A stretch of DNA of 64,000 bases from a virus (Duplodnaviria; Caudoviricetes). The first letter of the stretch is position 1. Every line of letters begins with the position of its first letter. The position numbers and the translations under genes were made by a program. Below are positions 59,325-63,191 of the stretch, in pieces. Where the stretch lies: positions 1,841 to 65,840 of the IMG/VR virus record IMGVR_UViG_3300020577_002599. One strand, written 5' to 3'. A model generated the notes under the pieces. It did not search any database, had not been told where the DNA came from, and saw only the letters and a list, made by a program, of their open reading frames with translations.

Positions 59325-60062
59325 ATGGCACAAGTAAGCGATTGTTGTGGTGCGTACTCAGAGTATGCAGGAGATGTAGATATATGTCCAGAATGTTTAG
59401 AGCATTGTGATTTTTATGATGATGAGGAAGACGATGATAGTGGAGATGATTAAAACTTAAAAATAAATAAGATATGAACAAAACACAAATTATCAACGAA
59501 ATAAAAGACCTTATGTTTGTTGCAGAATCAACAGAAAATGTGTACTTTTATCATTCCTTAGAGCGAATTAAGAAAGCTTTAGAGGAAGAATGGACAAACT
59601 CAGATATGTATATGGAAGAAATAAAGTCCGTATTAGGTTATGAGCAAACAATGGAAGACTTAAATCAAATTAAACTATGAAGATAAGGTGCAGAGAAATA
59701 AACAAGGCATTAACTAAGAAGTACTTAACACCAAACAAAGAGTACGAGGTTAAATTAAAGTTAGATGGAATGGTTGTTATAAAAGATGATCAAGGAGATG
59801 ACGTATTAGTAAAGTTAAAAAATTGTAATCACATTAATTCAAATTGGGAAGTATTATGAGAGTAAAGTATAGAGGAGAAGAGATTGAAGTAACATATGAA
59901 ACTTATGGATTTTATTCTCCAGCAACACGTTTTCAGCCAGCAGAATATCCTGATATATTTATTGAAGACGTAGAATATCAAGGAGTTAGCATTTTTAAAA
60001 TATTATCTGATAATGATATAGAGGAAATATTGGAATCACTTATTTCTGAGTTAGAGTGTTAA
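59325..60062 (+). CDS. Small early genes (59325-59453 Cys/acidic, 59474-59680, 59677-59859, 59844-60062)
   Basis: Co-oriented ORFs; the first has SDCCGA..ICPECLEHC plus an acidic tail. Confidence 0.6.
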
Positions 60063-60188
60063 CGTTCCCTCAGCTTGTTGCAGTTGCGGATAATTAAAAA
60101 CTGACAATTCAAATATACACTAATTTTTAAATTAAAAAACAAAATGGAAAAAGAAACACAAACACCGCAATTGCCACAAACGGCTGTT
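60061..60188 (+). repeat. attC-like hairpin 1
   Basis: AAC-GTTCC..CAGTTGCGG / CCGCAATTG..GCT-GTT imperfect inverted repeat with A-rich loop. Confidence 0.8.
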
Positions 60189-60590
60189 AGCGGTTGTATT
60201 GTCACATTTGACTTTGATGGCACGCTTTCAAGAAATGATGTTCAAGAATATGCTTTAGAATTAATATCAAAAGGCGTTGATGTTTGGGTAGTTACTTCAA
60301 GATATGACGAATTACATAAACATCGTTATCAAATTAATCCAACGAATGACGATTTATGGGAAGTTATAGATAGACTGAATATTCCTAGATGGAAAGTTAG
60401 ATTTACTTGTATGGAATGGAAAGCATCATATTTATTTCACACAAATTCAGTTTTTCATTTAGACGACAATAACGAGGAATTTTTTGAAATGCGAAAATTA
60501 AAATGCAAAACAAAAGCAGTTCAAGTAAGTTCTGGCGGATTTCAAAATAAATGTAATCGCATTCTATTACGTTCTGTAGATAACCGCTAA
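60144..60590 (+). CDS. Cassette 1 gene: HAD-superfamily hydrolase-like protein
   Basis: VTFDFDGTLS, WVVTSR and FHLDDN motifs; the start codon lies inside hairpin 1. Confidence 0.75.
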   Translation: MEKETQTPQLPQTAVSGCIVTFDFDGTLSRNDVQEYALELISKGVDVWVVTSRYDELHKHRYQINPTNDDLWEVIDRLNIPRWKVRFTCMEWKASYLFHTNSVFHLDDNNEEFFEMRKLKCKTKAVQVSSGGFQNKCNRILLRSVDNR

Positions 60591-60713
60591 CGTTCCCACG
60601 CTTTACGATGTTGCGTAATTAAGCAATGAACACAGCAAACAGAAAGAAATTATTAAATTAAAAACAAATTATTACTAACAATACCAAAACCAGCAATATC
60701 GTAAACGTGTGTT
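60589..60713 (+). repeat. attC-like hairpin 2
   Basis: AAC-GTTCC-CACG(C)TTTACGATGTTGC / GCAATATCGTAAACGTG-T-GTT. Confidence 0.85.
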
Positions 60714-60744
60714 ATAGTTAGTGGCGGTTTTAAAAACTTAAATT

Positions 60745-61085
60745 ATGAAAATTATAAAAAAATTAGACAAATTATTTGATAAATATTATTCTAAACAATT
60801 AGAAATACAAGACGCTGAAAATCCTGAATATTATTTATATATGGGAAAAGCAAACGGAATAAAAGAATCTATTGATTTAATTGAAAAAGATAAAAAAAAT
60901 ATTAAAAAACTCTTACAATTTAAAGCAAATGAATATAAACTAAAAAGAGATTTTGCTAAAAAAAATGTGATAATCAAAATAAGTTCGATATTTCTTTTGA
61001 AGCAGAAGTTGAAGATGAAATGTTATTATTAGCTGAAAGGGAATATAGTGTTGTTTTAGATATTTTAAACTATATTTCAAAGTAA
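60745..61085 (+). pseudogene. Cassette 2 gene, apparently frameshifted at A8 (60958-60965)
   Basis: The annotated frame ends at 61032; the -1 frame continues CDNQNKFDISFEAEVEDEMLLLAEREYSVVLDILNYISK* to just before the cassette boundary. Confidence 0.55.
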
Positions 61086-61109
61086 AAAATAAACGTAGCT
61101 ATTAACTAT

Positions 61110-61225
61110 AACGTTTTGCAACTTGGCATCAGTTGCGGATTATGAAAACAGATTTTCATATTTATAACAAAAATAACTTAAAAATTAGTATTAACAAAAT
61201 ACAGCAATTGTGCCAAATTGCTGTT
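61110..61225 (+). repeat. attC-like hairpin 3
   Basis: AAC-GTTTT-GCAACTTGGCATCAGTTGC / GCAATTGTGCCAAATTGC-T-GTT. Confidence 0.85.
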
Positions 61226-61239
61226 ATAAGTAGCTTTTT

Positions 61240-61497
61240 ATGGACACAAAATTAAAATTCGTAAGATTAAAACAATACAATGAAGTAATTATATTTCCTT
61301 GTGTTATTGAACATTCAAAATTTAAACATCTTAATCCTATTTCCGCTGGTTTTTGCTATATTTTAGGCGATGAGCAAAGAGTAACTTGTTTTGGCGAAAG
61401 TTATTCTTTAGGGCTAAAGGCAGACGAAAAACAAGACACTATTGAAGCTACTAAATGGGTGTTTGGAATAGATGCAATGTTAAACGTAATGCGTTAA
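61240..61497 (+). CDS. Cassette 3 gene: conserved phage hypothetical protein
   Basis: IIFP..IEH..ISAGF..CFGESYSL pattern. Confidence 0.7.
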   Translation: MDTKLKFVRLKQYNEVIIFPCVIEHSKFKHLNPISAGFCYILGDEQRVTCFGESYSLGLKADEKQDTIEATKWVFGIDAMLNVMR

Positions 61498-61507
61498 AGT
61501 TACTTAT

Positions 61508-61632
61508 AACGTTCCCACAGCTTTGCGAGGTTGCTGAAAATATAAAACTTCGCTTCGATTTAAAAAGTGCATTGCAAGTACACACTAAACATCAAATTAA
61601 TAAATTACCAGCAATCTTGCAAAACTGGTGTT
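61508..61632 (+). repeat. attC-like hairpin 4
   Basis: AAC-GTTCCCA-CAGCTTTGCGAGGTTGCTG / CAGCAATCTTGCAAAACTG-GT-GTT. Confidence 0.85.
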
Positions 61633-61647
61633 AACAACAGTAATATT

Positions 61648-61968
61648 ATGAAAACAACATTTTGGATTTTATTTACAGTATTTATGGTTATTTATAGTGC
61701 TGAACCAAACATTAAATTTAAACCTTTTTCAATTTCTTTTGAAAGTCCTTACATTCCTTTTGCTTTATTTTTTCTTGTTTTATCAATTTCTTTTTTTGGA
61801 ATACATTATCAAAAAAAAGGAGAAAAACAAGGTAGAATAGAAGGATTAGAAGAATACTATCCAAAAGGATTTAAAGAAGGTTCTGACTTTATTCTTGAAG
61901 AAATAAATAAAAAAATAAAAGAACAAGGAAAAGATTGTACTATTTCAGTTAAACGCAACGATGATTAA
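61648..61968 (+). CDS. Cassette 4 gene: membrane protein
   Basis: Two hydrophobic helices; ATG at 61648. Confidence 0.7.
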   Translation: MKTTFWILFTVFMVIYSAEPNIKFKPFSISFESPYIPFALFFLVLSISFFGIHYQKKGEKQGRIEGLEEYYPKGFKEGSDFILEEINKKIKEQGKDCTISVKRNDD

Positions 61969-61979
61969 TTATTGTTGTT

Positions 61980-62098
61980 AACGTTCCGAGTGCTTGCCGT
62001 TCGGTGGCATTTTGAACACTAAAGATTACAAACACAAAAACACTATCCGAGTGATTTCGGACACAAACCAAGCCTGCCACTCACGGCAAACACTTGTT
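61980..62098 (+). repeat. attC-like hairpin 5
   Basis: AAC-GTTCCG-AGTGCTTGCCGTTCGGTGGCA / TGCCACTCACGGCAAACACT-T-GTT; inner TCCGA/TCGGA hairpin. Confidence 0.85.
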
Positions 62099-62129
62099 AG
62101 TGGCAGTGTTTCTCATAAATTTCAATAAA

Positions 62130-62483
62130 ATGCGGAAAATAGAAGTAAAAATCAGACAAATTATTTGGGCTATCAAACAATCATTTAAGCCCACAACTTA
62201 TGACCTTGTTATTTATCAAGGGAAAGAATATTATATTAAATCAAGCCTTACAGGTGAAAATGTTTGGAATCTTTTTGAAAAAGGAGAAAAAGAACCAACG
62301 TATAGACGTATCAAAGGTCAAGATTTAAAAGTGGTTCAATCAATAAAAAGGTTTACCAATGTTTTTAAAAATCATTTAAAATTCCAAAAACAAAGTTGGG
62401 ACTTAATTGATTGTGGTAATCCGATTGGAACAAGGCTTAGTTACAATAATTCCGAAGACATATATTTTCGGAGGTCGTTCTAA
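62130..62483 (+). CDS. Cassette 5 gene: hypothetical protein
   Basis: ATG at 62130; the stop abuts the closing inverted repeat. Confidence 0.7.
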   Translation: MRKIEVKIRQIIWAIKQSFKPTTYDLVIYQGKEYYIKSSLTGENVWNLFEKGEKEPTYRRIKGQDLKVVQSIKRFTNVFKNHLKFQKQSWDLIDCGNPIGTRLSYNNSEDIYFRRSF

Positions 62484-62542
62484 CATTGCCACTAACTATT
62501 CGCTTGACGAAACAAAACAACACTATAACTAATTGATTTACA

Positions 62543-62776
62543 ATGAAAAACTTTGAGATAGCAACTATAAATTACAGGGTGTATTGGAGATTCAAAGAAC
62601 ACCAAGAATATAAAGTAACAAAATGTAAGAAAATAATAAATTGTAAAAGAGGCGTTTTAATAAAGCAGTCAGTAAAAGGTGGTAGTATTGGGTATTATAT
62701 ATCAGGAAGATTCATAAAAAGAAAAGATTTAAACAATCACATAGAAGCAATACCTAAAGAAAAATGTCCATTCTGA
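62543..62776 (+). CDS. Small basic protein, NUMOD4-like
   Basis: W.FKEHQEYKVT..IIN.KRG..IKQ pattern. Confidence 0.45.
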   Translation: MKNFEIATINYRVYWRFKEHQEYKVTKCKKIINCKRGVLIKQSVKGGSIGYYISGRFIKRKDLNNHIEAIPKEKCPF

Positions 62777-62808: not shown

Positions 62809-62870
62809 CAAAAGGAGTTAGTCGAAAATCCTATAAAGAGTAGACATAATTAAATTTAATTAAATTAAGT

Positions 62871-63191
62871 ATGGCAAGTTTAAACAATTTGTATTTAAAG
62901 TTAGAGACATTAGAGACTCTAGTAAAAAGAATTAAGTCTAAAGGAGAAAATGGCATTAGCATAGACATCTCTATTAATGACGAAGCAAATCAGTACAATC
63001 AAAATGTATCTGCTTATGTAACTCAATCTAAAGACGATAGAGACAACAAGAAGCCTCGCTACTATGTGGGTAATGGTAGAACATTCTGGACTGATGGAAC
63101 TATTACGGCATTCAAGAATGAATCTAATGATAGTGGAAAGAAAGATATGAAGAAAGAGCTAGAACCACAAACAGATGACTTACCCTTCTAA
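62871..63191 (+). CDS. Putative single-stranded DNA-binding protein
   Basis: 106 aa, beta-rich, acidic C-terminal tip TDDLPF; adjacent to ERF. Confidence 0.65.
   Translation: MASLNNLYLKLETLETLVKRIKSKGENGISIDISINDEANQYNQNVSAYVTQSKDDRDNKKPRYYVGNGRTFWTDGTITAFKNESNDSGKKDMKKELEPQTDDLPF

Follow-up and report, generated by a model that had tools for sequence, protein, structure and literature searches.

The DNA considered here, called the window below, is a stretch of 64,000 nucleotides (nt) from a virus of the Caudoviricetes (Duplodnaviria), positions 1,841 to 65,840 of the IMG/VR record IMGVR_UViG_3300020577_002599. The ends of this 65,840-base pair (bp) record, of which the window is the whole minus 1.8 kb, overlap, and thus the genome is complete. 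A BLAST comparison with cultured phages shows that it resembles the Flavobacterium 'elemo' podophages at the Erf region only. The host of the phage is a Flavobacterium. An array at 60060-62496 on the + strand consists of five hairpins that alternate with five small open reading frames (ORFs) of the same strand. It is read here as a probable array of integron-type gene cassettes that lacks its own recombinase, the hairpins corresponding to attC sites. Its parts are as follows, with the scores of the two site models (R1 and R2) that are dealt with below.

60052-60063, + strand: left junction; the TAA stop codon of the backbone ORF 59844-60062 is the TAA of TAA|C in the first site.
60060-60189, + strand: attC-like hairpin 1; R1 86.7 bits; R2 66.4 bits, E 2.6e-14.
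60186-60591, + strand: cargo module 1, running from GTTA to TAAC, with a 12-nt terminal inverted repeat and ORF 60144-60590.
60588-60714, + strand: attC-like hairpin 2; R1 78.3 bits; R2 55 bits.
60711-61112, + strand: cargo module 2, with ORF 60745-61032, an ORFan with a possible frameshift at an A-run.
61109-61226, + strand: attC-like hairpin 3; R1 88.2 bits; R2 73 bits, E 5.9e-16.
61223-61510, + strand: cargo module 3, with ORF 61240-61497, an ORFan.
61507-61633, + strand: attC-like hairpin 4; R1 75.8 bits; R2 68.5 bits.
61630-61982, + strand: cargo module 4, with ORF 61648-61968, an ORFan for a small predicted membrane protein.
61979-62099, + strand: attC-like hairpin 5; R1 81.3 bits; R2 34.2 bits, E 2e-6.
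62096-62496, + strand: cargo module 5, with ORF 62130-62483, an ORFan.
62493-62540, + strand: right junction, a candidate insertion site of attI type; after TAAC comes TAyTnGATTGrCGAAAC, kept in relatives.

All five hairpin elements are on the + strand, start with TAACGTT and end with TGTTA, and they measure 130, 127, 118, 127 and 121 nt from TAAC to GTTA in the order of hairpins 1-5. A first-pass annotation, made from the letters of the window alone, had described five hairpins in alternation with five genes, which holds, whereas the lengths of 116-128 nt that it gave are to be replaced by 118-130 nt. Every gene is bracketed by its own inverted repeat of 12-15 nt, which begins with GTTA and ends with TAAC; the first pair reads GTTAGCGGTTGT / ATAACCGCTAAC. 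These unit-specific repeats were found where they had been placed (60186-197/60580-591, 60711-725/61098-112, 61223-237/61496-510, 61630-644/61968-982 and 62096-110/62482-496), four pairs by a repeat search and the first by direct reading. Beyond the GTTA/TAAC core, the two arms match at a fixed position over 11 nt, 2 mismatches at most being allowed, for which the chance is ~1e-4 per pair, and this is seen five times. Cutting at AA|C likewise gives the same five units as had been proposed (60063-60590, 60591-61111, 61112-61509, 61510-61981 and 61982-62495). The right end of the array (TAAC at 62493-62496) adjoins conserved backbone.

Each hairpin has an imperfect stem of ~20 bp and an A-rich loop of ~70 nt, and its 5' arm contains 3-5 extra bases (GTTCC) directly after TAAC. 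The minimum free energies are unremarkable, with z-scores of 0 to -2.8 on both strands, so that the strands are not discriminated and the thermodynamic support is weak, because the loops are long. As the energies are uninformative, support for the structure and for the choice of strand comes from covariation and conserved G.T pairs. Among 12 hairpins from the phage and its relatives, 13 of 21 consensus pairs show compensatory changes, and two G.T pairs, which would become A.C mismatches on the other strand, are nearly invariant. The TAACG and TGTTA ends are invariant, and the full attC consensus RYYYAAC/GTTRRRY is matched only loosely; about 9 bases are invariant across the site family. In size and form, the sites of 118-130 nt agree with classical attC sites, which are imperfect hairpins of ~57-141 nt with a conserved structure and AAC...GTT ends. 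With five sites in 2.4 kb, the locus also agrees with the definition of a cluster of attC sites without an integrase (CALIN), namely at least 2 attC sites grouped in a few kb, with no integrase in the vicinity.

To judge from sequence comparison, the hairpins belong to a site family that is common to Bacteroidota chromosomes and their phages. The covariance model R2, which was trained on 31 sites from bacterial chromosomes only, all adjoining a Xer/IntI-like recombinase, finds exactly the five hairpins in the 64-kb window, at full length and on the + strand (34-73 bits, E 6e-16 to 2e-6), in accordance with the earlier suggestion that they are attC-type sites. Model R1 likewise detects only these five. 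Because R1 misses sites with short loops (50-90 nt), a heuristic scan was added that requires AACG, TGTT[AG] and complementary arms; the window, which served as the control, yields five + strand sites and zero on the - strand. A search of Rfam assigns no family to the hairpins. Chromosomal sites of five Flavobacterium genomes match a phage site on another viral contig (L096:6043-6169) along its whole length with 85-90% identity. Of 61 Flavobacterium genomes sampled, 39 have at least one R2 site at E<=1e-18. In Flavobacterium sp. CAN_S2 (G007), at least 110 sites were counted (150 candidates scored), and the chromosome bears very large arrays of them, e.g. at C4:409892-439224 and C5:756-25979. 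A BLAST search with a common host-type site gave no match among cultured phages.

The first-pass annotation had reported that no tyrosine recombinase is encoded in the window, and this extends to the complete genome of 65.8 kb, in which searches for a tyrosine recombinase (PF00589), a Y1 transposase (PF01797) and a resolvase found none. The complete relatives behind contigs L006 and L008 also gave none of the three. On the other side stand at least 8 viral contigs in which an array lies directly upstream of a tyrosine recombinase gene on the same strand. This linkage was recognized in L092/L103, with R1 in L105, L106, L108 and L109, and by the heuristic scan in L110 (8 sites), L112 and L113 (7 sites). 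In L092, six units end with ...CCTAAC, and the gene for a tyrosine recombinase of 276 amino acids (aa; L092:6517-7347) follows 51 nt later; the recombinases of the other contigs are homologues of this protein. In five viral contigs, 36-117 nt separate the end of the array from the start of the recombinase gene, and an ATATAT-rich motif is present there. In the window, a conserved right flank occupies the attI-like position with no recombinase gene beside it.

Arrays of the same kind are found in bacteria. A survey by recombinase alignment against one genome per species yielded 80 loci with 38-48% identity, nearly all in Bacteroidota, and hairpins of like build adjoin the recombinase gene in 43 of them. 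In Flavobacterium limicola (DSM 15094, recombinase at L183:7788-8831), Flavobacterium sp. CAN_S2 and an uncultured Flavobacterium, cassette ORFs come after the gene for a recombinase of ~345 aa, and behind each ORF there is a site that reads TAACGTTCC...TGTTA on its opposite strand. Of the 43 loci, 32 have the sites downstream of the recombinase on the opposite strand and 11 have them upstream on the same strand. Only two of four conceivable layouts are thus used, and it is always the same array end that is turned towards the recombinase.

The array-linked recombinases of phages have intact catalytic residues and match best the XerA / 'integron integrase' model, with scores below its cut-off. 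Against TIGR02249, those of relatives and hosts reach 146-210 bits, under the cut-off of 265, and for most of them the best-scoring stretch against this IntI model stops near position 176-181 (205 in L110). The closest solved structures are XerA proteins. The recombinase has 12 aa where VchIntIA has 54, and therefore the IntI-specific insertion is missing; an IntI with this additional domain, by which a classical integron is defined, is not what accompanies these arrays. It had been proposed that the phage borrows a host or helper integrase. The presence of a matching recombinase in relatives and hosts fits this proposal, whereas the enzyme is a short Xer-like protein instead of a canonical IntI, and some phages encode their own. 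In a quick tree search, which is not a finished phylogeny, 11 of 12 phage recombinases form one clade (SH-aLRT 96) with two contigs from metagenome-assembled genomes; the twelfth, from L113, is on a long branch, and the bacterial recombinases separate largely by layout into two further clades.

The orientation of the cargo distinguishes the viral from the bacterial arrays. When the longest ORFs of the two strands were compared in the intervals between adjacent sites, the ORF was on the strand that reads from TAACG to TGTTA in 41 viral intervals and on the other strand in 0, with 3 ambiguous; the corresponding numbers for bacterial intervals are 2, 34 and 7. The mirror-image arrangement that had been suspected from the window alone is borne out: the coding strand is in the orientation of the recombining strand in 41/41 scorable viral intervals and opposite to it in 34/36 bacterial ones. 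In a classical cassette, the ORF is followed by attC and lies opposite to the recombining strand. In the window, each unit has one ORF on the folding strand, with the site upstream.

Cassette content differs among relatives, as the first-pass annotation had anticipated for a mobile array, with breakpoints at TAAC and no fixed set of genes. The relatives compared are viral contigs that share the gene for a 77-aa protein on the right flank or Erf (L006/L008, L086, L087, L088 and L091). They contain 1-3 units of like build at the equivalent position with different genes, and their homology to the window resumes exactly at the terminal TAAC, after which TAyTnGATTGrCGAAAC is kept regardless of the preceding cassette. 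The break between backbone and array is at TAAC in six relatives. L086 and L088 have a common left backbone up to TAAC and diverge immediately after it; here it is a different backbone gene that also ends in the TAA of TAA|C. Individual cassettes recur elsewhere: cassette 1 in L095 (94.6% identity) and L096 (90%), and cassette 5 in L092 and L093 (86-88% identity), whose arrays end at the recombinase gene, bounded in both cases from GTTA to TAAC. The sampled bacterial arrays have no cassettes in common with each other, and in the cultured relative elemoC_14-1A no site is found within 9 kb on either side of Erf. L087 bears a second array of two units, one with a Dam-type methyltransferase, at another backbone position (L087:4535-5911) after a homologue of the ORF 1629-1862 of the genome under study, which has no site at the matching place.

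The array is best read as a recombinase-less, CALIN-like array of five cassettes that belongs to an integron-type system common to Bacteroidota chromosomes and phages, with a probability of roughly 0.78. Sequence comparison demonstrates the site family membership, the geometry, the recombinase linkage in relatives and hosts, and the cassette turnover at TAAC, while the strand chemistry, the cleavage point, the circles and the supply of the enzyme in trans are the presumed part of this reading. The hairpins would fold in single-stranded DNA, with + as the folding strand. Once a cassette is free and circular, the stem of its hairpin would be lengthened by the unit-specific inverted repeat around the gene. 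Strand exchange at 5'-TAA|C would be carried out by a Xer-like tyrosine recombinase; circles would be inserted at the conserved right-hand site (62496), and units would be excised or reshuffled. Because the genome has no recombinase, the reaction would depend on an enzyme supplied in trans, either by the chromosome of the Flavobacterium host or by a co-infecting phage that carries one. Since the cargo is on the recombining strand, the site heads the gene. Transcripts from early promoters presumably extend across the array in the direction of the insertion site, and the hairpins would then be part of the mRNA as well.

Integrons are viewed as bacterial devices, mostly proteobacterial, that are defined by IntI. 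The array and its relatives resemble sedentary chromosomal integrons, such as the superintegron of Vibrio cholerae, in that single-gene cassettes are separated by imperfect hairpins of ~120 nt in which structure is conserved over sequence, and also in the AAC/GTT ends, the complementary cassette ends, the tyrosine recombinase, the preference of one strand for folding and the candidate insertion site at the recombinase-proximal end. They are unlike them in the array-linked recombinase, which lacks the IntI-specific insertion, in an asymmetric bulge (GTTCC against T) beside the cleavage box, and in the phage cargo, all of which is on the recombining strand with the site heading the gene and the candidate insertion site at the downstream end. 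The phage order of array, candidate insertion site and 5' end of the recombinase gene is that of a classical divergent integron, but every gene is reversed. A Xer-type tyrosine recombinase that uses a folded single-stranded DNA hairpin as substrate is known from attP of CTX-phi with XerCD. The likeness lies in this combination of enzyme type and substrate, the closest solved structures being XerA; unlike the system in the window, CTX-phi integrates its whole genome at dif and has neither cassette arrays nor a dedicated recombinase adjoining the sites.

Among phage elements, the nearest analogue is the stem-loop cassettes of T4-type phages called PeSLs, repeated stem-loops that flank small accessory genes in plastic early regions and mark the breaks of gene gain and loss (PMC2839356, PMC4122927). 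Unlike the array in the window, a PeSL is a short motif of promoter and terminator that works by way of homologous recombination; it has neither a dedicated recombinase nor a counterpart array in bacteria. Phage CALINs themselves have been described. Using IntegronFinder and HattCI, Qi et al. (2023) found 17 CALINs in phage genomes, including that of Polaribacter phage P12002L with methyltransferase cargo (PMC9892861); as in the present case, attC clusters without integrase occur there in virulent phages, and methyltransferases are among the cargo. The primer sequence of P12002L_attC1 is a short TAACG...TGTTA hairpin, a member of the site family of the window; it lies at ~30.0 kb, on the gene strand and flanked by two methyltransferase genes. 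In that study, the site family went unrecognized, as did its recombinase, the bacterial arrays and the flipped cargo (PMC9892861). A literature search found no description of arrays with a Xer-like recombinase or of flipped phage cargo, although subscription journals were mostly outside its scope and absence is unproven. Phage CALINs and one site of the family in P12002L are therefore known, and the flipped cargo and the Xer-like recombinase arrays are apparently new, or at least little described.

Several points weigh against the reading as a cassette array. Contrary to a simple cassette model, the hairpins are not inherited with one neighbouring gene. Cassette 1 of the window and its 94.6% identical copy in L095 have unrelated hairpins both upstream and downstream; the downstream hairpins of L095 and L096 have the loop in common and not the stem, only the 3' half of the upstream hairpin is common to L092 and L093, and hairpin 2 of L006 is a chimera with poorly pairing arms. 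The few common cassettes conflict on whether a hairpin travels with the gene before it or after it. Breaks with the backbone are at TAAC, but TAAC and GTTA both delimit the recurring cassettes. The mosaic hairpins imply that homologous recombination inside the sites must also act. The phage under study and two complete relatives encode no recombinase. In classical integrons, the IntI insertion reads extrahelical bases, and the recombinase considered here is devoid of it. The cleavage point and the circles would be those of integrons by analogy, the sole footprint of circles being the terminal complementarity of each unit. P12002L_attC1, the only family member with a published test, was the one site that IntI1 failed to recombine (PMC9892861). 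The array might alternatively be a fossil, in which genuine attC-type sites no longer recombine site-specifically in this recombinase-less phage and the relatives differ through ordinary phage homologous recombination, by Erf and others, with conserved parts of the hairpins as short homology. The mosaicism, with crossovers in the loops and at both ends, fits this explanation, as does the presence of Erf and endonuclease VII in a phage without a tyrosine recombinase. It is nevertheless improbable, considering that backbone-to-cassette breaks are exactly at TAAC in six relatives, that the invariant ends, of only 4-7 nt, are too short for annealing proteins, and that hosts with matching sites and the enzyme are common.

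The hairpins might alternatively be mainly RNA-level elements on the early transcript, such as processing sites, terminators or translational regulators, and the units mobile regulatory cassettes like PeSLs, which show that stem-loop cassettes are able to drive shuffling (PMC2839356, PMC4122927). The hairpins are on the coding strand and are thus transcribed, the conserved G.T pairs would be G.U in RNA, and several ORFs start inside the loop. This is quite unlikely to be their main role, however, as the bacterial sites are on the non-coding strand of their cargo in 34/36 intervals and lie in a fixed geometry with a tyrosine recombinase gene, and the hairpins match no Rfam family. Strand-specific insertion, always 3' of TAAC and with no target duplication, could also be explained by non-autonomous single-strand transposons of the IS200/IS605 kind that are mobilized in trans by an HUH (Y1) transposase; each unit ends in TAAC, by which the target would be recreated. 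This idea was rejected as PF01797 was not found in the genome, and it has very little probability left in view of the tyrosine recombinase that is the array-linked enzyme in more than 50 loci and of the single long hairpin per unit, instead of two subterminal ones.

If the reading as a recombinase-less cassette array is true, Bacteroidota have an abundant integron-type system on a simpler Xer-like enzyme, which bears on the evolution of IntI from Xer recombinases, and virulent phages are provided with a site-specific means of acquiring, losing and rearranging accessory early genes, likely anti-restriction methyltransferases among them. The flipped cargo would be a natural experiment on why cassette orientation matters, as the site heads the gene and appears in mRNA. 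A wider proposal, to which about even odds are given, is that Bacteroidota and their phages have an integron-like system on a short Xer-like recombinase without the IntI domain, in which a phage branch has its own recombinase clade and a separate cassette pool with genes on the recombining strand; recombinase-less phages would tap this pool, rich in methyltransferases and small early genes, via the enzyme of a host or a co-infecting phage.

None of the five cargo proteins has a significant family in Pfam or PHROGs, and the cargo of the relatives' arrays includes two DNA methyltransferases and a YopX-like protein. The ORF of cassette 1 (60144-60590) starts within the loop of hairpin 1 and encodes a DFDGT motif, with no significant family match. 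Cargo ORFs that start in a hairpin loop and read through the 3' arm are found at 60144-60200 in the window, L087:401-454 and L088:9650-9710; their N-terminal peptides are alike (..PQLPQTAVS.., ..TPHCSKHVLA.. and ..MPQCVQTDVS..) because the sequence of the hairpin arm is conserved. The ORF of cassette 2 (region 60745-61085) stops at 61032, ~50 nt ahead of the terminal repeat, and a frameshift or slippery site may lie at the A-run near 60958-60965. In L095, a master DNA invertase (Mpi-family serine recombinase, 318 bits; L095:1807-2451) lies together with three small ORFs between two hairpins, apparently as cargo of a phage array; a serine recombinase was rejected as the array enzyme, since the one found is cargo in a single contig. 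L006 has paralogous cargo genes at L006:248-514 and L006:2569-2847 with identical 3' ends and terminal repeats. The second of them has no upstream hairpin and comes after ~2 kb of small genes of the ordinary kind, suggesting that cassette and non-cassette copies have recombined.

On the right flank of the array, the gene for the 77-aa protein (62543-62776) is conserved directly beside it in all relatives with the same insertion site (81% identity). Pfam and PHROGs assign it no family, and it resembles, by eye only, the N-terminal DNA-binding part of HNH/NUMOD4 homing endonucleases. The sole Rfam match, a DUF805b RNA motif at 62812-62846 (37.1 bits, just above the gathering score), lies between the array and Erf, upstream of ORF 62871-63191. 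After Erf and just outside the window, at 87-749 of the genome, a 220-aa ORF has an HNH-type endonuclease motif (HLDHIIP...N).

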